Source: a virus. Taken from it: a stretch of 23,918 nt of DNA. Position numbers and translations under genes: made by a program. The DNA lies in the UHGV virus genome UHGV-0186982; one strand, given 5' to 3'. Shown one piece after another: positions 312-15,194 of this stretch (the stretch's first letter is position 1; each line of letters begins with the position of its first letter). Under the pieces are notes generated by a model. The model saw only the letters and a program-made list of their open reading frames with translations, did not search any database and had not been told where the DNA came from.

Positions 312-1319
312 CTACCTGACCTCTTCACGATTATCAAAAGGGTTTAACGCAACGGCAGCATCAAGATGATTGGGGGCGAAATGCGCATACCTCATCGTCA
401 TCATGATCGTACTGTGCCCGAGTATCTGCTGAAGCACTAAAATATTCCCCCCACGCATCATAAAGTGACTTGCGAAGGTATGGCGTAGTACATGGGTACG
501 CTGCCCCCTTGGCAACTCAATAGCGGCTCGTGCAAGCGCTGATTTGAATGCTTCGTATGCTGGAGTAAAAAGTGCTCCGCGTTTTTTGGGTAGCAGCTTC
601 TGTAGCTGTTCAGAAATCGGTACAGTTCGATTTTTTTTGCTTTTGGTCTGCGTAAACGTCAACCGGCCAGGCAGAACCTGAGATTGCTTTAAATCCTGCG
701 CCTCGCTCCACCTTGCGCCGGTCGCCAGGCATATCCGCACTATGACCCCCAAATCCTTATTTGCCGATTGATCGCAGGCCGACAAAAGTCGCACTATCTC
801 CTCATCGTAGAGGAAGGCCAGCTCCTGATCCCCCTCCTTGAATTGCCTGATGCCCGACAGTGGGTTATCGCCCTCCCATTCACCCAACCGCTTCATCTCT
901 GAAAAAACCGCGTGCAGGTACGACTGCTCGCGATTTACCGTCGCCTCACTGAGTTTCTTTTTGCCTTTCTGATTCCACTCACCGGCCAATCGTTTTTCAC
1001 GATAAACCGCAAATGTATTTTTATCGAAGCGAGACGCGAGGGGATCGCCCAGGCGCTCGCAAATCGCCAATAACTTCACCTTGCGTTCATCCCCAGATGT
1101 TAGCGTTTTGCCGTGCATTTCGTACCAGCGCTCAACGAAAGCAGAAAGCGTCACCGCGCTGTCGTTTACCTCCTGACTAGTTGCGTTGTTCATGGTGCGG
1201 CGCTCAAAAGAGAGCGCCTCGCCTTTGGTAGCAAACTGCTTACGAATACGCTTTCCGTCACGACCATACGGAAAGCACTGGCATAACCATTTTCCTGATG
1301 TGAGCTTACGAACGGTCAT
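312..1319 (-). CDS. int: Tyrosine recombinase, P2-type phage integrase
   Basis: N-terminus MTVRKLTSGKW...GRDGKRIRKQF and C-terminal HVLRHTFAS...LGHSTIMMTMRYAH (R..HxxR..Y catalytic region). Start placed at the Met matching the P2 Int N-terminal pattern; the longer ORF back to 1403 would overlap the upstream gene by about 100 nt. Confidence 0.9.
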   Translation of the reverse strand: MTVRKLTSGKWLCQCFPYGRDGKRIRKQFATKGEALSFERRTMNNATSQEVNDSAVTLSAFVERWYEMHGKTLTSGDERKVKLLAICERLGDPLASRFDKNTFAVYREKRLAGEWNQKGKKKLSEATVNREQSYLHAVFSEMKRLGEWEGDNPLSGIRQFKEGDQELAFLYDEEIVRLLSACDQSANKDLGVIVRICLATGARWSEAQDLKQSQVLPGRLTFTQTKSKKNRTVPISEQLQKLLPKKRGALFTPAYEAFKSALARAAIELPRGQRTHVLRHTFASHFMMRGGNILVLQQILGHSTIMMTMRYAHFAPNHLDAAVALNPFDNREEVR

Positions 1320-2502
1320 AATTGAACAAATCCACAAATTTAGGCACTTGCTCTGATTTCCTCTCCCAGTAACACCCAGACTGAAGCAATGATATGAAAT
1401 CATCTTGGGTCATTGAGAGTGTACTTGTTGTTATCAGGCGTTTTTTGGTCTCGTCTGGAGTCAAAAGCTCAACCGTAACAGTACCCGGATCATATGATTG
1501 GCTTTCCATGAGGATTGGTGCATCAGTTAGTTTTCTGGGGGTAATTAGACGATTAGGGTTGAAATCACCAGTAAAGCTTCCTTCAAATGATGCGATGGTC
1601 TCGTAACCGGAGAAACAGTCAAATTGTATTTGCAATACCATCGCATGAGGTAATGTTAAAAACTCACTCCAATCTGTGTAGCCTAATTTGTCACTATAAA
1701 AAGTATCGCCGCGCTGGAACTGGTAAGACGTTCCTTGCGTCCATACATCATAGGTGTTTTTTTCAAATGTTATTTTAGTTAGTTTAATGTCTAGCTTGCT
1801 TTTGAATACTTCTTTGATTGCGAATTTCCATCCGGCTGCATAGCCATCAATAAAGTTTGCAATAAGGGCGGTGCTTCTACGAGGCTCTCTTAACGTTCTA
1901 AATGTAAGGGATAGTGCTTCCAAATCTTTTTTCAGCGAATCTACTTCGGAAGTGATTTTCTCTTCATGAATAACATCTAGCTCAGGCGCTTCGTAGGGAA
2001 TCTCACCAGTCTCTATAAAGGCGATGAACTGTTCTTTGCTTATGATAAAGGCGTTTCGAGCCCTTGCCTCTTCAATCTTCCTCCACCCCATATTATCCCC
2101 TACGCAAAGGAAATATAGGTTTGCAGAAACACCGCCTTTAACAGATAAGTTGTTATTCTTCGCTAATTCGGTTAAATATGCTTTGTCAGCCTGCTTAAAA
2201 CCAGTAAAACAGATTTCTAAATTATTTCCTCTTTCCAATTTACGACTAGGGCGTGGCTGCGTTTTCGGTACGATGGATTCTTTGTCCAAAGTAGCATTAA
2301 GCAATTCATCTTCCGACATGAACATTTTCAGAACTCGATCTTTTCTAAAAGTCCTGAATGCCTTTCGATTAATAGAGTAGCCTTGGAAAAACTCATCTCG
2401 CTCAACTACGCGAGTTACACTTTGCCGTGACACCTCTCCTTTGACATTGATGTAATGGAAGAAAGCATTTTTATCTTCATTGATAAGAGATGAATCAAAC
2501 AT
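1306..2502 (-). CDS. Hypothetical 398-aa protein with a BRCT-like central domain; moron inside the repressor-integrase operon
   Basis: Long ORF in an AT-rich block; strong SD (aaggagtg) 7-8 nt upstream of the ATG at 2502; 14-nt overlap with the int start; central segment NLEICFTGFKQ...VSANLYFLCVGDNMGWRKIEEARARNAFIISKEQFIAFI has the BRCT pattern seen at the C-terminus of NAD-dependent DNA ligase. Confidence 0.75.
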   Translation of the reverse strand: MFDSSLINEDKNAFFHYINVKGEVSRQSVTRVVERDEFFQGYSINRKAFRTFRKDRVLKMFMSEDELLNATLDKESIVPKTQPRPSRKLERGNNLEICFTGFKQADKAYLTELAKNNNLSVKGGVSANLYFLCVGDNMGWRKIEEARARNAFIISKEQFIAFIETGEIPYEAPELDVIHEEKITSEVDSLKKDLEALSLTFRTLREPRRSTALIANFIDGYAAGWKFAIKEVFKSKLDIKLTKITFEKNTYDVWTQGTSYQFQRGDTFYSDKLGYTDWSEFLTLPHAMVLQIQFDCFSGYETIASFEGSFTGDFNPNRLITPRKLTDAPILMESQSYDPGTVTVELLTPDETKKRLITTSTLSMTQDDFISLLQSGCYWERKSEQVPKFVDLFNYDRS

Positions 2503-2544: not shown

Positions 2545-2898
2545 TTAATCGTCACCAGTTTTTACTCGTGGCTTTGATTGCGCAAACGCATCACCAACCG
2601 CCTGTATGTTTAAGCGCGCCGCCTCATCCATCGCGCGGTAGTTTTCTATGAGTTTTTTTTCTTCTTCGCTTTCCGTGACCATGCCATCTGGTTGGAGGGT
2701 CCGTTGCCCAGTAAGTACATACAATATATCAACCCCGATTTTTGCCAGTGCCGAGAGGTATTTTGCATCTGGTGATCTCTCATCTCGTTCGTAGTAGGCC
2801 TGAGAACCACGTGACTGTTCTGCCAGTTTGGCAAAATCTGTTTGATTTAATCCGAGTTTATCCCGCTCCTCGCGAAGCCTGCTTCCGAATGTGGACAT
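2545..2898 (-). CDS. Immunity repressor, HTH XRE-family (cI/C-like)
   Basis: N-terminal HTH LGLNQTDFAKLAEQSRGSQAYYERDE; divergent from the early operon; immediately upstream of int in the same orientation, as in P2 and 186. Confidence 0.8.
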   Translation of the reverse strand: MSTFGSRLREERDKLGLNQTDFAKLAEQSRGSQAYYERDERSPDAKYLSALAKIGVDILYVLTGQRTLQPDGMVTESEEEKKLIENYRAMDEAARLNIQAVGDAFAQSKPRVKTGDD

Positions 2899-3213: not shown

Positions 3214-3417
3214 ATGTCAGGCGTAACTATCAATTTAAACGTTGCCGCGCCTTATTTATCTCTAAAGGAGTATTCCAGGATTACGGGTATTCCGTTTGAG
3301 ACATGCCGGGGCATGGTGAAGGACGGGCGGATCATCATCCGACCAAAGGAGCTTTCGGGGGGCAAGGTTGAGGTAAATATGATCGCCATGCTCAAGGATG
3401 CCATCGCGAACAGTTAA
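3214..3417 (+). CDS. Small DNA-binding protein, possible excisionase/Cox-like winged helix
   Basis: SD ggggtga upstream of ATG; LSLKEYSRITGIPFETCRGMVKDGRIII is HTH/excisionase-like. Confidence 0.5.
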   Translation: MSGVTINLNVAAPYLSLKEYSRITGIPFETCRGMVKDGRIIIRPKELSGGKVEVNMIAMLKDAIANS

Positions 3418-3429
3418 TAGAGGCAGGGA

Positions 3430-3693
3430 ATGAATAAACGCTACTCAAAACACGGCAAGTATGCGGGAAGTATTCATATCGTGGCGGGCGATAACTTACC
3501 TAAAGTCGTTTGGATAAATAAGCACGCTGGAATTTGCTGCGGCTTCACCATCCGCGTATTACCGCGCAGGGTAGGCAAGAAGCGTTATCAAATCATGAAA
3601 GATGGTGATTCTTTCGGAATTGACTTTGCGTTATCTGAAGCACGCAAAACGATAGATCGTATTATTAATAACAACCGCTTCACCATTCATTAA
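3430..3693 (+). CDS. Hypothetical early protein (87 aa)
   Basis: ORF with SD gaggcaggga before the ATG; tightly packed in the early operon. Confidence 0.5.
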   Translation: MNKRYSKHGKYAGSIHIVAGDNLPKVVWINKHAGICCGFTIRVLPRRVGKKRYQIMKDGDSFGIDFALSEARKTIDRIINNNRFTIH

Positions 3694-3709
3694 ATAACCG
3701 AGGCAGAAA

Positions 3710-4126
3710 ATGAAAAGAGAATACGCAGACAAAATTAACTCACTACTGCAATGCTTCCATTTCAATAAAGAGTTTCTGGAATGGAACCACGATTATTCAC
3801 TTCAACTGTTGCGTCACGGCGCTTCCCACCTTTATCACTTCGCCATGCTCCAGGGAGAGACAGACAAAGCCACTTTGGAGGAACTCCGCAGCATTATTAC
3901 CACCCTCACCAATGGCGAGATCCCTGAGCCATACGATTTGCTCTCACTGGAAGCCGAACAGCCAGAGCCGATTGACCCAAAAGGAAGGACTATGATGTTT
4001 GCTAATCCGCTGGCGGTATCAGTGGAACTTACGCCGGAGATGGTACAACAGCTGAAAGAGACAATGGCGAAAATGGCGAATATCCCCCACAGAATGAGAA
4101 AGCCAACTCTCTATCCTCAGGGATAG
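3710..4126 (+). CDS. Hypothetical early protein (138 aa)
   Basis: ORF with SD gaggcag before the ATG; 16-nt spacing from the preceding gene. Confidence 0.55.
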   Translation: MKREYADKINSLLQCFHFNKEFLEWNHDYSLQLLRHGASHLYHFAMLQGETDKATLEELRSIITTLTNGEIPEPYDLLSLEAEQPEPIDPKGRTMMFANPLAVSVELTPEMVQQLKETMAKMANIPHRMRKPTLYPQG

Positions 4127-4170
4127 GGGGCGAGCCATGTTCAACAAAAAGAAAGCCGGAGATAATCCAA

Positions 4171-4443
4171 ATGACTACCACCGCTGATTTACTGGCTTTG
4201 CGCCAGAAATTGAGATCAGAAAATAATTCTGCTACAGGGACGAGGACTGGTTTCAGTGCCGATCATATTTACAGCCGATCAGGTGCCGCTATTTATCCGG
4301 CAATATTAAGTGATATTAACGATAACGGGTTTGAGGTGAGATGTATTAGAACGGGTGCTGTATTTACCATTAAACCAAACGGATCCATATGTCACGGACT
4401 TATTAAGTCCTTAGAGCGCGAATGGTTCGGCACTAGCAGTTAA
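4171..4443 (+). CDS. Hypothetical early protein (90 aa)
   Basis: ORF with SD ggaga before the ATG. Confidence 0.5.
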   Translation: MTTTADLLALRQKLRSENNSATGTRTGFSADHIYSRSGAAIYPAILSDINDNGFEVRCIRTGAVFTIKPNGSICHGLIKSLEREWFGTSS

Positions 4444-4516
4444 TTAAATTAGTTCGTTGATTTATTAACGGCATTCATTTTGCCGGGGATTCGCTTTGCC
4501 TTTTTCAGGAGGTCGC

Positions 4517-4741
4517 ATGTCGATCAAGTCAATAAAACTGGATGGCGGAATTAGCGATCCAGAGTTTGTGGAAATAAGCGCCAACGCACGGAAACACGAG
4601 CGCGCTCACGTCCTTGGCATGCTCCGTGATTTTGTCGGTCAGCTGAAAAAGGAAAGCGCCACCCCGGAAGAGATTTATTCATCAATCGAACAGTGGGCCA
4701 ACGCCCGCGAATTAACCATCACTGAGGAAAGCAAACAATGA
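4517..4741 (+). CDS. Hypothetical early protein (74 aa)
   Basis: ATG at 4517 preceded by aggagg; the track ORF begins at an upstream TTG (4496) that lacks an RBS; stop overlaps the next gene start (ATGA). Confidence 0.5.
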   Translation: MSIKSIKLDGGISDPEFVEISANARKHERAHVLGMLRDFVGQLKKESATPEEIYSSIEQWANARELTITEESKQ

Positions 4742-5320: not shown

Positions 5321-6283
5321 ATGACAATGATTAAATCACCCATCAAATGGGCGGGCGGTAAAACCCGCGTCATGCCGCAGCTGCTGAAGCATCTGCCGAA
5401 AGCCGATTGCCTGATTGAGCCGTTCGTTGGCAGCGGTACCGTGTTTATGAACACGGAATACCGCCGCTACGTCCTCTGCGATAGCAACCGCGCGCTGATC
5501 AATTTCTTTCTTGTATTGAGGGATGATACAGAGCGCCTGATAGCGGTTGCCCGCAATATATTTCGGGACGGTAACAAAGCAGATAAATATTACTCCGAGC
5601 GCGAAAAATTCAATTACATGTCATGGTATGAATCAGAAAAGGATTGCCGATCGACATTATGGGCGGCGTCCTTTTTGTACCTGAATCGCCACTGCTTCAA
5701 CGGTCTTTATCGTACAAATCTGGACGGCGGTTTTAATGTGTCATTTGGCCGATATAAACAGCCATATTTCCCCGAAGCCGAAATGCGCTTATTCGCCGAA
5801 AAAGCGCGGGATACCAACGCGCTATTTCTTTGCAATGATTTTCGCACTTCTATTCCGTACATCGCGAAGAATCGCCCGGACTCAGTAATTTACTGCGACC
5901 CCCCCTATATCCCGGCAAGCAAATCCGCCAATTTCACCGCATACGGCAAGCCGTTTACCCTGGACGATCATCGTGCTCTGGCTGCAACCCTGCTCGATGC
6001 TCATCGCCAGCACGGCACCCGCGCGGTGATATCCAACAGCGATACCCCGGAAACCCGCGAGATTTATTCCGCTTTCAACCTCCACGCCTTCAGCGTTCGC
6101 CGTTCCGTTAGCGCCAAAAGCCGCGACATGGCCGGTGAAGTGATCGGCGTGATTCCTGATTCAGTCGACTGCTATACGCGTAGTTGCGCTAGCTGCGAAG
6201 ACGTCGAGGAATGCTTAGCGCCGACAGAGATTTGGATCGGGTTTGATATGGCCGCCGGATTTGATAACGGGGAGCCTTTCTGA
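5321..6283 (+). CDS. dam: DNA adenine methyltransferase, Dam family (D12 class N6-adenine MTase)
   Basis: IKWAGGK...EPFVGSGTVF...LYLNR..FNG...FGRYK.PYFPEAE...YCDPPY...NFTAYG closely parallels E. coli Dam as I recall it; has an extra Cys-rich C-terminal tail (CYTRSCASCEDVEEC). Confidence 0.9.
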   Translation: MTMIKSPIKWAGGKTRVMPQLLKHLPKADCLIEPFVGSGTVFMNTEYRRYVLCDSNRALINFFLVLRDDTERLIAVARNIFRDGNKADKYYSEREKFNYMSWYESEKDCRSTLWAASFLYLNRHCFNGLYRTNLDGGFNVSFGRYKQPYFPEAEMRLFAEKARDTNALFLCNDFRTSIPYIAKNRPDSVIYCDPPYIPASKSANFTAYGKPFTLDDHRALAATLLDAHRQHGTRAVISNSDTPETREIYSAFNLHAFSVRRSVSAKSRDMAGEVIGVIPDSVDCYTRSCASCEDVEECLAPTEIWIGFDMAAGFDNGEPF

Positions 6284-6540: not shown

Positions 6541-7653
6541 TTGGCTCCCGATGGGCTGTCTCGCCTTTCGTGTTTTCTCTGTGGTGTGGGAGGCGCTGTG
6601 GTTGCTTATTACAACGAAATAGACCCTCACGCAGCACAGCACCTGCGCAACCTTATCGACGCCGGCCATATTGCGCCGGGCGTCGTTGACACCCGTTCAA
6701 TTGAGGATGTAACCCCCAATGACCTTATCGGATTCAATCAGTGCCATTTCTTCGCCGGGATCGGCGGATGGTCGCTTGCCTTACGCCGCGCAGGATGGCC
6801 AGACAGTCGCCCGGCATGGACAGCATCATGCCCATGCCAGCCTTTCAGCGCGGCAGGCAAAGGACTTGGGTTTGCTGACGAGCGGCACTTATGGCCCTCC
6901 GCACATTGGCTTGTCGGCCAGCGCCGCCCTGTCGTGGTTTTTGGCGAGCAATCTGGCAGCGCTGACGCAGCGGACTGGATCGACCTTGTACAAGCTGACG
7001 TGGAAGCCCTGGGCTATGCCTTCGGGGCGGTTGCGTTTCCGTCTGCGAGCGTCGGCGCGCCGCACCAGAGAGACCGCGCTTATTGGGTGGCCGACGCCGG
7101 CCGCGAACGAGTTCGAACCGAAGGACTTGCAAAGGCTCTTGGAGAGAAGGGAGAAATTCGCGGCCAAGCATGGAAACAACGGGTTTGGCCTGACACTAGG
7201 GCAGGCGGTGCATCTGTTTGCGGGCTGGCCGACACCGACGGCAACGGACGGGAAAGGCGGTTATCAGGGTGGACGAATCCGCAATGGGAAGCTATCGACG
7301 GACAGGCTAGATGTGGCTGCGCAGCTTGCGGGCTGGCCGACGCCGACCACGAGCAACGACCGCTCGCCATGTCCGCAAGAGGCTATGCGGACGTATCGCG
7401 ACAATGGAACAAAGATTCAGAAGCGGCTTCAGGATGTAGCTGCGTTATGCGGCCCGGCCCGGTTAACGGCTTCTGGAGAGATGCTGATTGGCTCCACGGC
7501 CGGGATGGATGGTGGAGGCCAGTTAGACCCGGATCATTCCCGCTGGCTGATGGGATTCCCGCCAGAGTGGGAAGAGTGCGCGCCTACGGAAACGCTATCA
7601 ACATTGAAGCGGCGGCAGCGTTCATAAAAGCGTATATGGCGGCGGAACAATGA
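6541..7653 (+). CDS. DNA cytosine-5 methyltransferase, apparently frameshifted (motifs split between two frames)
   Basis: Frame 1 has motif I-like FLCGVGG, NEID, PCQPFS (motif IV), PHQRDR (motif VIII) and C-terminal GNAINIEAAAAFIKAY (motif X); the overlapping frame 6719..7627 has WPTP repeats and RWLMGFPPEW (motif IX). Stop overlaps the A start (ATGA). Confidence 0.6.
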   Translation: MAPDGLSRLSCFLCGVGGAVVAYYNEIDPHAAQHLRNLIDAGHIAPGVVDTRSIEDVTPNDLIGFNQCHFFAGIGGWSLALRRAGWPDSRPAWTASCPCQPFSAAGKGLGFADERHLWPSAHWLVGQRRPVVVFGEQSGSADAADWIDLVQADVEALGYAFGAVAFPSASVGAPHQRDRAYWVADAGRERVRTEGLAKALGEKGEIRGQAWKQRVWPDTRAGGASVCGLADTDGNGRERRLSGWTNPQWEAIDGQARCGCAACGLADADHEQRPLAMSARGYADVSRQWNKDSEAASGCSCVMRPGPVNGFWRDADWLHGRDGWWRPVRPGSFPLADGIPARVGRVRAYGNAINIEAAAAFIKAYMAAEQ

Positions 7654-10133
7654 CCGCCGCATCAACTGCACCTCACATCGCGCAGCCAGCTCGCGCTGAC
7701 GCCACCCGGTATGATTACGAGTGGCAGAAGCCGAGACCTGCCATTTATGTTGATAAGACTCCTGCTGTTGATCTGGTTGAACTTGGTCAAGAGAAGGAGT
7801 TTTTGGCGTGGGTAAAAGTCACCCTTGCGCCGCTACCTCGCTTTATTCGCCTGCGTCTGGCTTCCCGCGTCGACAGCATTCACACCATGAAGGGCAGACA
7901 CATCGCCCGCCTGGCGCTGCGCGATATCATCCGCAGGGATCTGCCGCCTATCAATATGGTTAATGAGCAATATGCTATTGCGATGACCGATGAGGCTAAA
8001 TCTCAGGCCGATACGGCATTTAAGGGGTTAAACCCGCTTTATCACACGTTTAACACCCTGCATGGGCTGGTTGAGCGCTTTAATCGCCTGCCGGATTTCA
8101 CGCCGGAAGATGTCGAGCTGCTGGCGCAGGATATCGCCATCTATATGCGGTCTGTGCTGAGTGAAGTTCACGAAACTATAGAGACGCAGAGTGATCGCAA
8201 ATATGCCGGGTACCTTTACACCGAAGCGGCCATCCTCGCGCGGCTTTTCTTCCTGACGCCACCGAGCTGGGGAAAGTATTGTCGCGGCGCGTTGTTTATT
8301 GACGAAGCTACTACCGGCATCAGCAAGATGCTGGATGATCGCTACTGGCACCGCAACCTGAAAAAGTACGCCACGCGCTGGCGCGAGCATCTGCACATTG
8401 CTTTTGGCGATGTGAAACGGGGTGCTGCACCGTATTGCAGCAAGCACCACGTTGACGAGTGGGACGCCAGGCGCAAGCGCAGCCGCGCGATCATGGCCCG
8501 CCTTGAACTGGAAGACCAGGATACCAAAGAGCGCATTTCACTTATCGAGCAGATCGATAAGAGCATATCTAACCCGGCGTTGCGCCGCGTTGAACTTATG
8601 ACCCGTATCGGCGGCTTTGAGAAAGTCGCCACCGAAAGCGGCTACGCGGGTCAGTTTTTTACCCTGACAGCGCCATCCAAATACCACGCATATACCGTAT
8701 TCGGTCATCGTAATGCCAAATGGAACGGCGCCAGCCCAAGATCCACGCAGCGCTACCTTAATCGGGTATGGCAGAAAATCCGCGCAGAGCTGGCCCGCCG
8801 CGAAATCCCGGTTTTTGGTCTGCGCGTGGCCGAGTCTCACCACGACGGTACGCCGCACTGGCATGGCCTGCTGTTCTCTTTGCCGGAACATTCCGCCGAG
8901 CTACTGGAAGTGATGGAAGACTACGCCACCCGCGAGGACGCGGAAGAGTTACAGGGTAAGCATGGCAACCAGCCGCGCTTTGACATGAAGCCTATCGATC
9001 ATGAAATCGGCAGCGCCACCGGCTACGTGGTGAAGTACATCAGTAAGAATATTGATGGCTATGCGCTCGATGGTGAAACTGACGACGAGAGCGGCCGGCC
9101 ACTCAAAGAAACATCTAAACATGCTACTGCCTGGGCTTCATGCTGGGGTATCCGTCAGTTTCAGTTTTTAGGCGGCGCGCCGGTGTCTGTCTGGCGCGAG
9201 TTGCGCCGGTTCCGCAATCAGGAGCAGGCCGACAAGATAAACCCACTGTTTGCCGAGCTACACCGCGCGGCCGATGCTGGCGACTGGCAGCAATACACTC
9301 AATTACAGGGGGGCGCACTGGTTGCCCGCCGCGATCTGCCGCTGCGTATCTGGTACCAGCAGAAAGACGAGCCGAATGATTACGGTGAATATCGCGACCT
9401 CATCAAAGGCCTGATGATGCCAGCCGTTCAGATCCCCCCCATTGAAACCCGCCTGCATTCCTACTCAATCGTAAGGAAGAAACCGGAGGTTTTAGACGAC
9501 TCCGGGCAGGCAGTTGACTTTGATTTTGACCTTCCGGGCGCGTCTGCGCCCTCTAGGACTCGTGTCAATAACTGTACCGAGGTTAAAAAACGAACAAATC
9601 AGCCCCCCGGATCACCGCCATTAATGACAGTGCCAGCTGAGCGGGAAGAGCCTGAACAGTTCGAGATCGGTCAGTTAACACGCGAACAGCGAAAACAGGC
9701 GTTTGAAAGCATCCATAACCACAAACCGCAGCGGCATAAATCCCCCGCCGATGAGTTTGAGGCGCTGGCGTACAGCATTACCGTCGGCGACTGTACAGAA
9801 TTTGACACCCGCAGGGCAGAAAGTTATCTCAAGGCCGCCCAGGAGATTAGGCGGAGAGAACAGGTTTTATCACCGGAAATCGCCGGACTGGCGGGCTTAG
9901 TTCAGTCATGGGCGAAAGTGAAGAAGGTGCTGATCAGTAAACCGCAGGCTATACAGCTGGCGCGCGGTAATGAAGTGACGGTGCTGGATACGGTATATCG
10001 AGCGCATCCGGTTACGGGTGAGTTGATCATTGCAGGCGTTGATAAACCGTGGCGCAAAACTCTTGCAGATCATAAGGCCGGCGAGCTAGCGGCTCGCTGG
10101 AAGAAGGCAGCTAAACGGAAAAATGAGAGGTAA
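7650..10133 (+). CDS. A: Replication initiation endonuclease, P2 gpA family (rolling-circle HUH nickase)
   Basis: HUH motif TPHWHGLLF and catalytic tyrosine motif GYVVKYISKNIDGY; 827 aa; position after the early genes. Confidence 0.9.
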   Translation: MTAASTAPHIAQPARADATRYDYEWQKPRPAIYVDKTPAVDLVELGQEKEFLAWVKVTLAPLPRFIRLRLASRVDSIHTMKGRHIARLALRDIIRRDLPPINMVNEQYAIAMTDEAKSQADTAFKGLNPLYHTFNTLHGLVERFNRLPDFTPEDVELLAQDIAIYMRSVLSEVHETIETQSDRKYAGYLYTEAAILARLFFLTPPSWGKYCRGALFIDEATTGISKMLDDRYWHRNLKKYATRWREHLHIAFGDVKRGAAPYCSKHHVDEWDARRKRSRAIMARLELEDQDTKERISLIEQIDKSISNPALRRVELMTRIGGFEKVATESGYAGQFFTLTAPSKYHAYTVFGHRNAKWNGASPRSTQRYLNRVWQKIRAELARREIPVFGLRVAESHHDGTPHWHGLLFSLPEHSAELLEVMEDYATREDAEELQGKHGNQPRFDMKPIDHEIGSATGYVVKYISKNIDGYALDGETDDESGRPLKETSKHATAWASCWGIRQFQFLGGAPVSVWRELRRFRNQEQADKINPLFAELHRAADAGDWQQYTQLQGGALVARRDLPLRIWYQQKDEPNDYGEYRDLIKGLMMPAVQIPPIETRLHSYSIVRKKPEVLDDSGQAVDFDFDLPGASAPSRTRVNNCTEVKKRTNQPPGSPPLMTVPAEREEPEQFEIGQLTREQRKQAFESIHNHKPQRHKSPADEFEALAYSITVGDCTEFDTRRAESYLKAAQEIRRREQVLSPEIAGLAGLVQSWAKVKKVLISKPQAIQLARGNEVTVLDTVYRAHPVTGELIIAGVDKPWRKTLADHKAGELAARWKKAAKRKNER

Positions 10134-10135
10134 AC

Positions 10136-10693
10136 ATGAAGCATTTCAGCACTAAAGCAATCAGATCAGTTATCGCCGAAATGAACCGGCAGGACGAGAA
10201 ATGGGGAGCTGACCGCGATCAACATCCGTTCGTCTGGCAAACCATTCTTAGCGGAGAGGTCGGCGAATTCAGCCAGGCAATTTTACATGATGAATTTGGA
10301 GGCCATAAATCAGGAACGGCACGCGAAGAGATGGTGCAGATCGCCGCCGTCGCTCTCCAGATTATCGAATATTACGATCGCCGCTGCGCGCCTGCGGCGG
10401 AATCTGAACAAGTTCACCCGGCGCTCGCCATGCCGGCCATCCCGGCGGGGCGTGAAAAAATCGGCGGCTGCGACTGGCTGGACTGGAATCAGCTGTCAGC
10501 GCTCGGTCTTATTGTCCGCATTAACGCAGAAATTCTTCACCCGCTTGGACTGGCAATTTTCCGTGATCCGGCTTCCGGCATCTCAGCGGGGGCCATGATT
10601 TCGCCAGATGGTAAATGGGAGTATGCGCCTGATGTTATTGATGGGCTGCGGGTAAGACTCTCCGATCACTCAGGAAAGCACGGTCACTTTTGA
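10136..10693 (+). CDS. Hypothetical protein, possible MazG-like nucleotide pyrophosphohydrolase N-terminal domain
   Basis: SD gagagg before ATG; LSGEVGEF...AREEMVQIAAVALQIIEYY resembles the paired acidic helices of MazG/HisE-type all-alpha NTP-PPases; C-terminal 100 aa unassigned. Confidence 0.45.
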   Translation: MKHFSTKAIRSVIAEMNRQDEKWGADRDQHPFVWQTILSGEVGEFSQAILHDEFGGHKSGTAREEMVQIAAVALQIIEYYDRRCAPAAESEQVHPALAMPAIPAGREKIGGCDWLDWNQLSALGLIVRINAEILHPLGLAIFRDPASGISAGAMISPDGKWEYAPDVIDGLRVRLSDHSGKHGHF

Positions 10694-10769: not shown

Positions 10770-11465
10770 ATGAGTTATCTGGGAAGCAAAGCGGCCAGCG
10801 GTGTTTATCAAAAAATCATCGCTGAAATGCCGCCGCACGATACCTACATTGAAACGCATTTAGGCGGCGGCGCGATCATGCTGCGCAAACCTCCGGCAAA
10901 AGTGAATTGGGGGATCGATATCGACCCGCAAACCATCGAGGCGTTTAACCAGAGCAACCCTGATTTTCTGGATAGGATGGCGGACACCCTATTTATTGAT
11001 GTTGGGGATGCCGTCGAGTTCTTGTGTTGTTTCGATTACGCCTCCGCCGGCCGCGTCTTAATTTATTCTGATCCGCCTTATCTCCATGAAACGCGCTCCA
11101 GCTCCGCGCGCTATCGGCATGAGTACACCGTTGGTGATCATTACCGCCTGCTGGGATTACTCTGCTCGATGCCGGAAAACGTGAGCGTAATCGTATCGGG
11201 GTATCCTTCTTCGGTTTATGACAACGCCCTGCCGCGCTGGCGCAGCAAGGAGTTTCAGGCCATGACGCGCGGCGGCGTTCGTACAGAGAAAATCTGGATG
11301 AACTACCCGGAAGGCCGGGCGTATTCGCACGCGTTCGCCGGTAAAGACTACAACGATCGCTATCGGATTAAACGAAAAGCGCAGAGATGGAAGGAAAAAT
11401 TTGCAGCGTTACCACCCGCCGAGAGGTTGGCGATCATGGTGGCGCTTGGTGAGGTCGAAATTTGA
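10770..11465 (+). CDS. DNA N6-adenine methyltransferase (second D12/Dam-like MTase)
   Basis: N-terminal YLGSKA and catalytic YSDPPY; ATG at 10770 preceded by gagaagg (track ORF starts at upstream TTG 10752). Confidence 0.8.
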   Translation: MSYLGSKAASGVYQKIIAEMPPHDTYIETHLGGGAIMLRKPPAKVNWGIDIDPQTIEAFNQSNPDFLDRMADTLFIDVGDAVEFLCCFDYASAGRVLIYSDPPYLHETRSSSARYRHEYTVGDHYRLLGLLCSMPENVSVIVSGYPSSVYDNALPRWRSKEFQAMTRGGVRTEKIWMNYPEGRAYSHAFAGKDYNDRYRIKRKAQRWKEKFAALPPAERLAIMVALGEVEI

Positions 11466-11583
11466 TTACGTTATTTAATGGAAGAATGATTGTTGTGTGG
11501 TTGATGTTTGCCACTAGTATTGCTATTGTCTATTCATTGTTTGATGCTTGTTTGAGTCTAAATAGAAATCTAATGGTGAAAAT

Positions 11584-11937
11584 ATGTTAAATAATCAGGA
11601 TTATGCTTTCATTAACAATACAGTAAATTCAATTAAATCAACAATGATCAGCCTTGCTAGTGAGTACGGCCCTGATTATTGTTCAGATTTTCTGATTACG
11701 TTCGAATCAATTAAAAACAATACGAGTCGGCTACGACTAACGGATGTGACCATTAACGAATACATATCGCTTATTCGTGGTCATAACATGAACGTTCAGA
11801 GCCATCCACAAGGATTGCTGGTACAAGCTCACGTTAGCTCGATTTTGCTGGCTCCGAATGATGCTGTGGCCCTATCGAATTCTCTCCAGATGTTTCGTGG
11901 CCGCGCAGCCCTCAACGGCGATTACGAGAACATCTAA
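11584..11937 (+). CDS. Hypothetical 117-aa protein in an AT-rich island at the tin/old-equivalent position beside cos
   Basis: Clean ORF in a sharply AT-rich block (about 11466..11940) flanked by GC-rich phage sequence; no recognisable motif. Confidence 0.55.
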   Translation: MLNNQDYAFINNTVNSIKSTMISLASEYGPDYCSDFLITFESIKNNTSRLRLTDVTINEYISLIRGHNMNVQSHPQGLLVQAHVSSILLAPNDAVALSNSLQMFRGRAALNGDYENI

Positions 11938-12082
11938 GCACGAAACGAAATGGTTTTCTATCGCGCAAACTTGCACAAATTTGCACAATTTTTGAAACGA
12001 TGTTTTTGCTATGCAGCGCCAGCACTGGCGGGGCATGGGCAGTCTGCGCAGAGTGCACAAAAAGAGGCATGTTTAGCGCGCA

Positions 12083-12101
12083 GGCGAGGCGGGGGAGCAA
12101 G
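12083..12101. other. cos site (cohesive-end region) of the P2-like genome
   Basis: ggcgaggcgggggagcaag followed by cgcgcgct closely resembles the P2 cos 19-nt end GGCGAGGCGGGGAAAGCAC-TGCGCGCT as I recall it; correct position just upstream of the minus-strand portal gene. Confidence 0.55.
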
Positions 12102-12336
12102 CGCGCGCTTTGGGGGTAGGGAAGGGGTCGGTATACCTCGCCAAAAGCTGCCTGCCGGGCGCGCACTTTCGCGGTGCATCCGGCGAGCGCGTAGGAAAAA
12201 GCCCGCCAGAGTGGCGCTGGCTGCGTCTGGTTGGTGATATGACATTGAAGTGTTGCAGGTTGGCCGACATGGCCAGGAATGGTGATGCTGCAGGTCGGTA
12301 CTGCACCGCCGGGAATGGCAGTGCGGTACCTTCAGA

Positions 12337-13389
12337 TCACTTCGGGGTTTCCAGCAGGGCGTAAGGGTTGAAGCGGATCACCTCTTCACCGAGCCAGTCG
12401 TTAACATGCTTCATCGCTTCCATGACCGGTGTCAGTTCGTTGACCGCGAATACCCTGGCTGCCTTCTCGACGTCGCCGAATGATCCGTTGCCTTCAGGTA
12501 TGGCGCCCATCAGTTGCGGCGGCACGCGGTGAGCCGCAAGCATGTCGTCACGCGTGGAGGACTTCACACCCACAAACTCATCCTTTGCCGATATCTGGCT
12601 GAAGGGCAGGATCTGCACGGCATCTTTGCCGACACCGGGCGCACTCAGCAGGATGTTTTTAAATGCCCCGCCGCGCCGGGTATCGGTCAATGTCTTCTTC
12701 AGGTTCTCCAGGCTTTCCCCGTCAGCCACTGCGCTGCTGACGTAGACAATACAGCCGGCATGCGACCCGTTGTCGTAGTAGAGCTTGCGGAACTTGTCGG
12801 CGGAGTGCGCCAGGTTCGCCGACAGCAGGCCGGCGAAATACTCCGGCATGCCGTAGATCTCCTGGTGAATATCCGGGTTGATCACATGGCACACCGAACC
12901 GGTTTCGAACGGGTGGTCATCAAGGCCAGACTGAATAAACCAGTAGGTGTCTAGGTCGGAACCGCGCCGGGTGTACTTCGCCAGCGAGTTACGAAAGCCC
13001 ATTGGCCCATTCAGGCGGTTGCGCCGCATCTCAAGGTACGCATTGCCGAACACAAACCAGTCGAGCGCAAAGGCGCTGAACGCCTGGCGCGATAACAGTT
13101 TGTGCGGGATAAAGCATCCGGCCAGCACGTTACGCTTGAAGAACAGCGCCGACTGGTGCCAGCTCGCATAGCCGAACTGGCGGGCCAGTCCGTACCAGCT
13201 GATCGGCGTCTCGTAGTACCGGCCATTATTGGCGCAGTACATGTTATCCAGCAGGTCATGAGCACCGGTCACCGGCCACGGGCCGTCGAACGTGAACGCG
13301 CTCAGGCCGGGGGCCGACTTCAGCGCGTCGGCGAGGTCGGCTTGCTCTCTGGCATACTGCCTGCCGCGCGGGGATTTTCGTCTGCTCAT
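12337..13389 (-). CDS. Q: Portal (capsid portal vertex) protein, P2 gpQ family
   Basis: 350 aa; first gene after cos on the minus strand; start overlaps the P stop (TGATG); P2 synteny. Confidence 0.85.
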   Translation of the reverse strand: MSRRKSPRGRQYAREQADLADALKSAPGLSAFTFDGPWPVTGAHDLLDNMYCANNGRYYETPISWYGLARQFGYASWHQSALFFKRNVLAGCFIPHKLLSRQAFSAFALDWFVFGNAYLEMRRNRLNGPMGFRNSLAKYTRRGSDLDTYWFIQSGLDDHPFETGSVCHVINPDIHQEIYGMPEYFAGLLSANLAHSADKFRKLYYDNGSHAGCIVYVSSAVADGESLENLKKTLTDTRRGGAFKNILLSAPGVGKDAVQILPFSQISAKDEFVGVKSSTRDDMLAAHRVPPQLMGAIPEGNGSFGDVEKAARVFAVNELTPVMEAMKHVNDWLGEEVIRFNPYALLETPK

Positions 13390-15110
13390 CAGTACTCCAT
13401 AACAGTCATAGTGTTTCCGCCTTCCTGACCCAGCGGCTCGTTAACGGTGGCGAGCATGGTCGCCCAGGCGAGATCGCCGTGACTCACGCCCCGGGCGCGG
13501 TCGGTGTCGTAGGTGATGACGCCGCCGGGCGTGACCACCTTGCGCACGGCACAGAAAGCGGTGATGAGGTCGTATTCGCCGCGGTCATACTCCCAGCGGC
13601 CAGCGCGGATCAGTTGCAGCATTTTCAGTACCAGCATGCGCTTGCTGGCTGGCGAGAACTGGTAGCACACCGCCGCAGGGAAACGCTTCCTCACGAGCTG
13701 ATAAACCGCCTCACCAATGCCGCTGCCGTCGATACCGATGTGTTGCACGTTGTAGCGTGTGAGCATGTTAATAATCATGGCGGCCTGCGCCTCAAACTCC
13801 ATGCCGCGTACGCGAATGGTTTCAATCGTGCGGAACTTGCCGCTGGGGATCAGTGGCGCCGCGTTAACAGAGATGGCCCCGCTGTCGCCTTTGCCGCTGG
13901 AGCCGTTGGGGTCGTAGCCAATCCACACCGGGCGATCGGCCATTGGTCGCATGGCGTAAGGTTTCCAGTCCGGCCACTCGTCGTAACCGTCTGCGCCGCA
14001 GCTCAGCAGCATGTTGTAGTCAAAGGCGGTCTCACCGTTCTTGATGAAGGTGCAGGCGTAGAGGTTGTCATACTCTTCCGGGCTGTTTTCTTCGCGGATT
14101 TCGTCAATGTCAGTCAGATCCCAGCCGTTATCGACCGCATCCTGCAACGTGACGATCTGGCGCCAGATTTTGTCCGGGCACATCAGCCCGCTGTTAAGCG
14201 TCTTCCAGGACGTGTCGAACTCCACGCGCTTACCGTGGCTGCGGCCTTTGTTGAAGGCTTCACCAGACCAGAAGGGGTACGCTTCGTGACTCTCTGCCGA
14301 TGGCGTGGAGAAGTAGGTGCGCGTCAGTCCTTTCAGCGTCGCCATCGCACCAGCCACTTTCTTCAGGTTGGCAAACTGCCCGACCCAGAAAAATTCGTCA
14401 AAGTACAGGTTGCCGGTGTATGACTGCGCGGTTGCGGCTGACGTGCCGAGAAAGTGCAGCTCCGCGCCGTTGAACAGCTGGATCATGTCACCGCCCTTTA
14501 GCTCAACATCAACTTCAGCAGCAGCGGCACGAATGAAGCTGCGGAACTGGTACGCCTGACGACGACTCGCCGACAGGAAGATCTGGTTGAGCTGGTGCTT
14601 GTATTTCACGTCACCCGTTAGCGCACGCAGCAGCGCCTCGCGGGCAAAGTACCAGGTCGCGCCGACCTGCCGGCTCTTCAGAATGGCCCGGTTACGGTGA
14701 TGAAGGTTTTCATACCAGGTTTTTTGGTGCCAGTGCAGTGAGTCGATGATGCTGGCACGCAGCGCGGAGATCTGCGCCTCTGAAAAGAAGTTTTGTTTCT
14801 TGCGGATCTTCTTCTTCGGCTGCGTCACTGGCGTGCCGTTATCCAGCTTTTTGAGCTGTCGGGTCAGCAGGTCAATTTCCTTGAAGTCGCCCCCGGTCTT
14901 TGTGTCCTTACTGGTGAGCTGGATCAGTCGTGCATCAATGGACGTCGTGACGCGCTGAACTGGCGGCGTGCTGTCCCATTCGTCACGTTTTTTCCATGAG
15001 TAAATCGTATTCTGATTGATACCCATCAGGCGCGCGATTTCCGCCGGGGGGTACCCCTGCCAGTAGAGCTGCCGTGCCCGCAGCATGATGAATGCTTCTT
15101 CAGTCGCCAT
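13389..15110 (-). CDS. P: Terminase large (ATPase) subunit, P2 gpP family
   Basis: 574 aa from ATG at 15110, which has a strong SD gaggagg 4 nt upstream (the track ORF extends to an upstream alternative start at 15182); divergent from O as in P2. Confidence 0.85.
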   Translation of the reverse strand: MATEEAFIMLRARQLYWQGYPPAEIARLMGINQNTIYSWKKRDEWDSTPPVQRVTTSIDARLIQLTSKDTKTGGDFKEIDLLTRQLKKLDNGTPVTQPKKKIRKKQNFFSEAQISALRASIIDSLHWHQKTWYENLHHRNRAILKSRQVGATWYFAREALLRALTGDVKYKHQLNQIFLSASRRQAYQFRSFIRAAAAEVDVELKGGDMIQLFNGAELHFLGTSAATAQSYTGNLYFDEFFWVGQFANLKKVAGAMATLKGLTRTYFSTPSAESHEAYPFWSGEAFNKGRSHGKRVEFDTSWKTLNSGLMCPDKIWRQIVTLQDAVDNGWDLTDIDEIREENSPEEYDNLYACTFIKNGETAFDYNMLLSCGADGYDEWPDWKPYAMRPMADRPVWIGYDPNGSSGKGDSGAISVNAAPLIPSGKFRTIETIRVRGMEFEAQAAMIINMLTRYNVQHIGIDGSGIGEAVYQLVRKRFPAAVCYQFSPASKRMLVLKMLQLIRAGRWEYDRGEYDLITAFCAVRKVVTPGGVITYDTDRARGVSHGDLAWATMLATVNEPLGQEGGNTMTVMEY

Positions 15111-15176
15111 TTGTCCTCCTCGCTTCCTGCCGGGGAGATTAACCCGCGCGCGCGTGCCCTTTCGCCCGCTTTTGGT

Positions 15177-15194
15177 TGTCACAGTTCCCTCACA
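15177..15194. promoter_or_regulatory. P2-type late promoter activator site (TGT-N12-ACA) in the P/O divergent region
   Basis: TGTcacagttccctcACA between the P and O starts; this dyad is the Ogr/Delta-family late-activator site of P2-like late promoters. Confidence 0.5.

Follow-up and report, generated by a model that had tools for sequence, protein, structure and literature searches.

The region between gpA and gpQ of P2-like phages, beside cos, carries old and tin in P2 itself and many defence systems in other P2-like phages, and this hotspot has been documented for phages of E. coli, Klebsiella and Salmonella (Rousset et al., 2022, PMC9122126; Moura de Sousa et al., 2026, PMC13586616, the latter including K. 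pneumoniae). Here, we analysed the corresponding slot of UHGV virus genome UHGV-0186982, a stretch of 23,918 nucleotides (referred to as the window) whose gene map is that of a P2-like prophage and in which an AT-rich island next to a cos-like core holds one gene for a 117-aa protein. The island is a horizontally exchanged, single-gene cargo cassette of about 500 bp in a Klebsiella P2-like prophage. The hotspot itself is already known biology, and the novelty lies in the cargo. Our preferred reading, to which we give a probability of roughly 0.45, is that the cassette carries an autoregulated, self-promoted DNA-binding accessory gene, which may help to exclude competing mobile DNA.

The closest described cargo is that of the old/tin type, which occupies the same slot by cos. 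Like it, the window cassette is AT-rich, swapped between similar phages and likely to bring its own promoter, and the slots of relatives hold bona fide defence systems. Unlike Old, which has both ATPase and TOPRIM domains, the 117-aa protein is encoded by one gene, is far smaller and has no sequence or fold relation to it.

A second likeness concerns the gene together with its upstream DNA. P2 Cox, 186 Apl, lambda Xis and RdfS are oligomeric proteins of the winged-helix type whose target sites are direct repeats spaced by one helical turn (PMC3936717, PMC7498355, PMC11963761). P2 Cox is a winged helix-turn-helix (HTH) protein that oligomerises on cox-boxes that are spaced by 10–11 bases and overlap a promoter, which it blocks, and it autoregulates (PMC3936717); the binding sites of recombination directionality factors, including 186 Apl, are described as direct repeats one helical turn apart (PMC7498355). 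Upstream of the 117-aa gene, repeats are likewise spaced by about one helical turn, as at a Cox/Apl/Xis-type site, and the protein would presumably bind them. Unlike the Cox/Xis group, the 117-aa protein is predicted to have extra long N- and C-terminal helices, is encoded in a cargo slot and has homologues on plasmids and in an integron; its gene is located about 10 kb from the integrase and the C repressor, outside the integrase/switch region. Homology to Cox was considered and rejected: hhalign gave a probability of 0.04% for a Phage_Cox protein (L002 1711-1983) and of 0.07% for the open reading frame (ORF) in the cox position of the window. Given the lack of Cox homology and of proximity to int/att, our claim is therefore that the protein works like these factors, not that it is a member of their family.

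The cargo cassette and its slot

Alignment to empty-slot loci (L017, L039) and other relatives places the cassette edges at the stop codon of a methyltransferase gene (11465) and at about 11965, just ahead of a conserved block, GCACAAATTTGCACAATTTTTGAAACG (11973-11999), that is common to all relatives aligned. Within 11466-11940, the GC content is 0.31–0.42, down from about 0.55; by 300-nt windows it runs from 0.56 (11150-11449) to 0.327 (11450-11749) and is 0.58 again by 11900. The non-coding part (11466-11583) has a GC content of 0.305 and the ORF one of 0.415, with a GC content at third codon positions (GC3) of 0.43, compared with 0.55 for the whole window and a GC3 of 0.61–0.62 for gene A and the methyltransferase gene. 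Two further AT-rich areas are present in the window, at about 1160-2500 and 3250-4300.

The variability of the slot was surveyed in 84 loci, namely 80 IMG/VR loci encoding the same methyltransferase plus the window, L001, L002 and L006; both anchors are present in 73 of them. Between the methyltransferase and the portal gene, the 73 slots measure from 399 bp to 5223 bp, and more than 30 gene architectures occur. Sixteen relatives have empty slots (about 400 bp, GC about 0.60), while the 5223-bp slot has a GC content of about 0.41. Representative cargo genes of the relatives include matches to Shedu SduA (2e-194), Septu PtuA (3e-118), a type II restriction enzyme (REase_II, 2e-93) beside a C5 methylase, NsnA/PD-T4-2-like, AbiLi, AriA/PD-T4-4-like and RmrA-like proteins, a PDC-M03 fusion and a ParE/HTH toxin–antitoxin pair. 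The 117-aa gene is present in 4/84 loci (the window, L002, L006 and L045, the last being the same contig as L010). In the window, the island sits between the gpA and gpQ homologues and adjoins the cos-like core, with two genes separating it from gpA. We take the single match to GGCGAGGCGGGG (Table 1) to be cos on the basis of the P2 cohesive-end sequence. A second ground for this identification is that the hotspot has been described as lying next to cos (PMC9122126).

The cargo and its surroundings have diverged to different degrees. Compared with L006, the cargo is 96% identical and the flanks 86–92%, whereas compared with L002 the cargo is 73% identical and the flanks 89–94%; this discordance points to different histories for cargo and backbone. 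Together, the compositional break, the patchy presence and the discordant divergence argue for horizontal exchange.

An earlier note on this DNA, made from its letters alone, had described a sharp AT-rich block with a clean 117-aa ORF in the variable, tin/old-equivalent hotspot by cos, and had proposed horizontal acquisition. The GC windows and the GC3 of the ORF agree with the first point, the ORF coordinates were exact and come with a coding signal (see below), the hotspot assignment is borne out by the literature and the slot survey, and acquisition is supported by composition, presence and divergence. The note also placed the island between gene A and cos; it does lie within this interval, but not directly next to gene A, as a 185-aa ORF and the 231-aa methyltransferase gene intervene.

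The gene and its family

Judged from the pattern of substitutions between alleles, the ORF is a real gene under purifying selection and no chance ORF. Compared with a 79%-identical Raoultella allele, 61/94 nucleotide differences affect third codon positions, and the ratio of non-synonymous to synonymous differences (pN/pS) is 0.145; compared with a 97% allele, it is 0.128. The start codon is supported by the alignment of M1 and L2 across the family.

A word-indexed search of 5.8 billion clusters returned 3 family clusters, and an exhaustive hidden Markov model search (1.84 billion representatives) combined with a profile search brought these to about 14. Members are 113–118 aa long, except for one 92-aa fragment, are 29–40% identical to the window protein and share the invariant residues G29, K44, R49, R51, Y60 and R105. 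The cluster of the window protein is annotated as 'hypothetical protein' in several hundred contigs of Klebsiella pneumoniae, K. michiganensis and K. oxytoca. Scans of the window protein and all 14 members against Pfam, PHROGs, PADLOC and NCBIfam gave nothing significant (the best Pfam values among the 14, below threshold, were HTH_45 at 0.16 and Trp_repressor at 0.0046 in one member), and a sequence profile search of the PDB gave no match. Likewise, the family was not found in 185,579 species-representative genomes, in INPHARED phages or PLSDB plasmids (tblastn), or in 5,426 complete E. coli genomes (blastn). The family is unnamed and very rare, with no functional relative found. Of the earlier description of the protein as an orphan without a motif, the lack of any library match stands, while the protein is no orphan: it belongs to a family of about 14 clusters with a predicted winged-helix-type fold and an upstream repeat array.

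All homes of the family are accessory DNA. The gene occupies the same slot in P2-like prophages of Klebsiella and Raoultella, and it is found in one cassette of a Vibrio parahaemolyticus chromosomal integron (L007), where attC-type repeats lie on both sides; that cassette is inverted relative to its neighbours, and the gene must therefore bring its own promoter. On four small, low-GC plasmid contigs, a PF03090-type rep gene follows the homologue on the same strand after 200–230 bp. In L009, a full-length PDC-S39 candidate defence protein (1.9e-218) is encoded 180 nt downstream of the family member. No neighbour recurs across these contexts, unlike the adjacent partner of a toxin–antitoxin system, which argues that the gene is a stand-alone unit; it is without companions in L006, L010 and the integron cassette as well as in the window.

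Several of these loci carry further genes. The PDC-S39 protein of L009 (797-2635; 612 aa) contains DUF7380 and DUF4209 as well as an RNAVAH motif typical of HEPN RNases, and DUF4209 has been classed as HEPN (PMC3710099). The homologues of the Vibrio-type subgroup in L011 and L012 share about 60 nt at their 3' end with an acidic ORF of 105 aa that contains CxxxC...CxxC motifs (477-797 in L011), and a convergent Endonuclease_1 gene comes next; this ORF is absent from the integron cassette L007. L097 (7146 bp) has a 127-nt terminal direct overlap and is probably a complete circular plasmid, with rep, a resolvase gene, a 250-aa ORF, a 137-aa HTH/coiled-coil ORF and the family member.

The upstream promoter-like element and repeats

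A promoter within the AT-rich leader had been predicted, and a promoter-like pair of hexamers is indeed conserved there with the Raoultella allele. Both hexamers and the spacer length are common to the window/L006 and Raoultella L002/L003, while the spacer sequence differs. A strict sigma-70 consensus scan of 11200-12400 found no promoter on the + strand, and the TTGATG/TATTGT pair was below threshold; it is conservation, not consensus strength, that suggests this element as the promoter of the 117-aa gene.

Direct repeats with an 11-nt period lie ahead of every family member. The window has three units (Table 1), the units of plasmid L008 are ATTGTGTTGTT + ATTGTTTGGTT + CTTGTTTGAGT, and the Raoultella loci have six or seven. 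Upstream of the gene, the window and L008 share 26/32 ungapped identities (0/300 dinucleotide shuffles, z 5.3), with proteins that are about 36% identical, and the five-locus upstream block reaches a z of 7.2. Lag 11 is the top autocorrelation lag in the window (z 3.6), L008, L096, L098 and Vibrio L007. The combined z values are 6.6 (phage/plasmid subgroup), 4.9 (Vibrio subgroup) and 7.9 (all 12 loci); other lags reach at most 3.1, a maximum that is the lag-22 harmonic in the phage/plasmid subgroup. Period-11 arrays were also reported by Tandem Repeats Finder (TRF) in L008 (7.9 copies) and L015 (CCTTAAGAGAT, 2.7 exact copies). The repeat unit differs by protein subgroup, being of the MTTGTYT type in one and of the CCTTAAG type in the other. 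Because the repeats cover the gene's own −10 hexamer and the unit changes with the subgroup, they may form a cognate, cooperative and autoregulatory pair with the protein.

The core of the last repeat unit, TTGTTTGAG, also occurs exactly at L008 647-655 and L098 3200-3208, some 25 nt ahead of the start codon of the plasmid rep gene. A further role of the protein in the control of rep is hinted at by this position; the counts are not above chance.

Other explanations of the leader were considered and set aside. A 42-aa hydrophobic ORF (11462-11590) was rejected as a partner peptide or gene: L002 lacks it, L006 has it with a frameshift, and in the comparison with L010 6/7 nucleotide differences affect codon positions 1 and 2. 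The Rfam search gave no family match in the region upstream of the 117-aa gene. The repeat units of type III toxin–antitoxin systems, which stand in tandem ahead of the toxin gene, are about 36 nt long; the analogy was dropped, given the 11-nt units here and an unrelated fold.

Predicted fold

With four near-identical alignment rows, AlphaFold returned a predicted local distance difference test score (pLDDT) of 42, and with a 14-row alignment of diverse homologues AlphaFold2 reached a pLDDT of 89.9 and a predicted template modelling score of 0.79. The latter model consists of a helix (4-28), a strand (33-39), two helices (40-47 and 54-65), two strands (70-74 and 77-83) and a final helix (91-110), that is, the topology H-E-H-H-E-E-H, which contains the winged-helix order H-S-H-H-S-S. 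The fold class is thus reasonably clear from a confident model, which predicts a winged-helix core (strand–helix–helix–strand–strand) between two long amphipathic helices. A Foldseek search of the PDB gave nothing significant. The sole good structural match is A0A1Y0SV42, a 93-aa protein of the Pseudomonas jumbo phage Noxifer (Foldseek E 6.9e-4, TM score 0.82 on the target), which superposes at 1.7 A over 92 columns but is only 13% identical; as it is uncharacterised, the match adds no functional information.

The model also resembles MarR/PadR-type winged-HTH proteins in its winged-helix core, flanking N- and C-terminal helices and possible dimer interface, and PecS, PadR-like and MarR entries are among the weak Foldseek matches (E at least 0.23). 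MarR/PadR-type dimers typically bind palindromic operators, whereas the repeats here are direct; also unlike those families, the 117-aa protein has no Pfam or NCBIfam match and falls in no curated family.

Proposed mechanism and alternatives

In the mechanism that we favour, the protein would bind the repeats ahead of its own gene head-to-tail, with one protomer per helical turn, and binding on the 11-nt repeats covering the −10 hexamer would repress its own promoter. The most likely benefit to the lysogen would be that competing phages or other mobile DNA are kept out. From the locus, we infer that the protein binds DNA, oligomerises and autoregulates; the conserved, phased upstream array that varies with the protein subgroup lends indirect support to sequence-specific binding. 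Exclusion of competing mobile DNA is the leading guess on account of the defence-hotspot location, the integron cassette, the small plasmids and the adjacency to PDC-S39, and it is the weakest step of the mechanism, a tentative proposal that we consider less likely than not. Integron cassettes have been reported to encode phage defence.

Several observations weigh against this interpretation. TRF found no array in the window or L002, a within-locus 7-mer repeat-count test was not significant (window P 0.41), and a 9–10-mer core occurs per replicon at about chance frequency. The phased T-tracts could reflect the intrinsic curvature of an AT-rich promoter and not protein-binding sites. The putative recognition helix (the third helix of the model) is largely hydrophobic, the family proteins are mostly acidic (pI 4.8–6.8), and the protein matches no DNA-binding family by sequence. 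With respect to defence, a search against the known and candidate defence proteins of PADLOC-DB 2.0 returned 0 families at E values up to 1. The antiviral function implied by the earlier note is accordingly not supported: there is no PADLOC match, and the cis-repeats point first to a DNA-binding, autoregulated protein. An antiviral role is plausible from location only. Overall, the observation made in that note is confirmed, and its interpretation is partly supported.

The strongest competitor, itself unlikely, holds that the target of the protein is another protein or a small molecule and not DNA. The gene product would then be a Tin-like single-protein exclusion factor, or an anti-defence factor that aids the establishment of a phage, plasmid or cassette, and the 11-nt phasing would merely reflect promoter architecture or curvature. 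The acidity of the protein and its hydrophobic third helix fit this explanation, as does the fact that the only good viral structural match is the uncharacterised Noxifer protein; an anti-defence role would also be in keeping with a prophage that invests in anti-restriction through three DNA methyltransferases, and anti-defence genes benefit small plasmids and phages alike. Against a target other than DNA, it counts that the upstream block is kept in sequence, and not just in phasing, between very divergent members, and that the repeat unit changes with the protein subgroup, as a cognate protein–DNA pair predicts. Recognisable anti-defence genes are, moreover, rare in P2-like phages (28/1511 elements; PMC13586616).

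Alternatively, the gene could be a plasmid-type regulator of replication, copy control or maintenance, in which an iteron-like array is read by a small winged-helix binder, and a passenger in the hotspot and the integron with little or no benefit to the lysogen. This is improbable, although the position of the homologue ahead of rep on the four plasmid contigs and the recurrence of TTGTTTGAG before rep in L008 and L098 speak for it. The plasmids have only 2–6 genes and represent two related lineages, which makes adjacency to rep weak evidence, and the motif counts are at chance level. In addition, the gene is under purifying selection in prophages that replicate via gpA and is kept in a chromosomal integron without rep. 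The comparison with centromere and iteron binders (ParR/parC, TubR/tubC, RepE/RepA) also shows differences: the repeat units are short here and number 3–8 copies, and no partner nucleoside triphosphatase (ParM, ParA, TubZ) or full Rep domain architecture is present in any phage, plasmid or integron locus. The fold of ParR is ribbon-helix-helix.

Least probable of all is a two-part system in which the gene supplies the regulator and of which the window no longer has the effector, the partner being the 83-aa ORF and 167-aa DUF4760 protein that follow the gene in Raoultella L002 or the HEPN-type PDC-S39 protein with its RNAVAH motif 180 nt downstream in L009, since no partner recurs across the family, DUF4760 stands alone, without the 117-aa gene, in six other slots and is thus separate cargo, purifying selection still acts on the gene where it is solitary (the window, L006, L010 and the integron cassette), and the 42-aa upstream ORF shows the disruptions and codon-position bias described above.

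Extending the DNA-binding interpretation, the cassette might constitute a new one-gene immunity or exclusion module, in which the self-regulated winged-helix protein would polymerise on phased 11-nt repeats and, in the lysogen, also coat, silence or sense matching arrays on incoming phage or plasmid DNA, while being shuttled between P2 hotspots, integron cassettes and small plasmids. We regard this elaboration as unlikely. Whichever role applies, one compact (about 500 bp) and rare family recurs in three mobile cargo stores, namely a phage hotspot, an integron cassette and small plasmids, and the confidently predicted fold together with a conserved cis-element yields a concrete hypothesis, namely that the protein binds the 11-nt repeats of its own leader. 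Should the cassette prove antiviral, it would rank with the smallest known defence modules that are self-contained, and the cargo of phage hotspots, integrons and plasmids would be shown to overlap; should the protein do no more than autoregulate, its gene is an ordinary accessory one. The cargo is at present a moderately interesting candidate and no demonstrated defence system.

Other features of the prophage and its relatives

Table 1. Positions of the cassette, its elements and the surrounding prophage features in the window.
Feature	Position	Strand	Basis or remark
Integrase	312-1403	-	Gene map
C-type repressor	2545-2898	-	Gene map
gpA (gene A)	7650-10133		Phage_GPA 2e-99
185-aa DUF7415 ORF	10136-10693		C-terminal part of DUF7415; PHROG 24212, 33705; between gpA and methyltransferase
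231-aa D12-like DNA methyltransferase (left slot anchor)	10770-11465	+	DPPY motif; last conserved early gene; PHROG 56 1.5e-36; PADLOC MTase_II 1.1e-23
Cargo cassette, AT-rich island	11466-11965	.	Absent from empty-slot relatives; alignment, GC profile, slot-length survey
Promoter-like element	11501-11529	+	-35 TTGATG (11501-11506), 17-nt spacer, -10 TATTGT (11524-11529); conservation
Three head-to-tail 11-nt direct repeats	11525-11557	+	ATTGTCTATTC + ATTGTTTGATG + CTTGTTTGAGT; overlap -10 and leader start
Shine-Dalgarno-like GGTGA	11575-11579	+	4 nt ahead of ATG; read from sequence
117-aa protein gene	11584-11937	+	ATG start; ORF, purifying selection, family, AlphaFold2 model
Cos-proximal non-coding block (right slot anchor)	11973-12336	.	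Conserved in all relatives aligned
Cos-like core GGCGAGGCGGGG	12083-12094		Unique match, 0.02 expected by chance
Portal gene (gpQ homologue), far hotspot boundary	12337-13389	-	Pfam Phage_portal 1e-14
Large terminase	13389-15182	-	Gene map

The early genes include a DEDDh exonuclease, a Dam-type methyltransferase and a C5 methyltransferase. Altogether, the prophage encodes three DNA methyltransferases (Dam-type D12, 5321-6283, 4.4e-58; C5 cytosine, 6541-7653; and the short D12-like enzyme at 10770-11465), which suggests a heavy investment in evading host restriction. The Pfam D12 match of the 231-aa enzyme is below threshold, and the enzyme is conserved in the 80 IMG/VR loci. The position of the 185-aa ORF varies as well, being filled by a 71-aa ORF in L006 and by nothing in L002. 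Inside the cos-proximal block, a terminator-like hairpin with a T run (12204-12221, - strand) lies just downstream of the portal stop codon and is likely the end of the Q–P late operon.

Two kinds of slot cargo in the relatives deserve mention. Klebsiella phage 3LV2017 (L001, NC_047817) carries an unannotated toxin–antitoxin pair (3833-4571, - strand) in its 1.4-kb methyltransferase–portal gap, consisting of a 92-aa ParE/RelE-type toxin (PF05016, 6e-7) and a 124-aa HTH_3 antitoxin (7e-13), and the same pair is present in L023. The 167-aa DUF4760 protein, which has an N-terminal membrane helix and no PADLOC model, is the sole slot cargo in about six relatives (L085 6731-7234, L022, L078, L080 and L084), and it is encoded after the 117-aa gene in L002 (10786-11289); it is a candidate single-gene cargo.

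A second AT-rich island of the window (GC about 0.36–0.44) contains a 398-aa ORF (1306-2502, - strand) between the integrase and the C-type repressor. The ORF has no Pfam match and a weak, partial PADLOC match to PDC-S48 (4.3e-5), and it probably fills the minor, integrase-proximal cargo hotspot of P2-like phages (PMC13586616).

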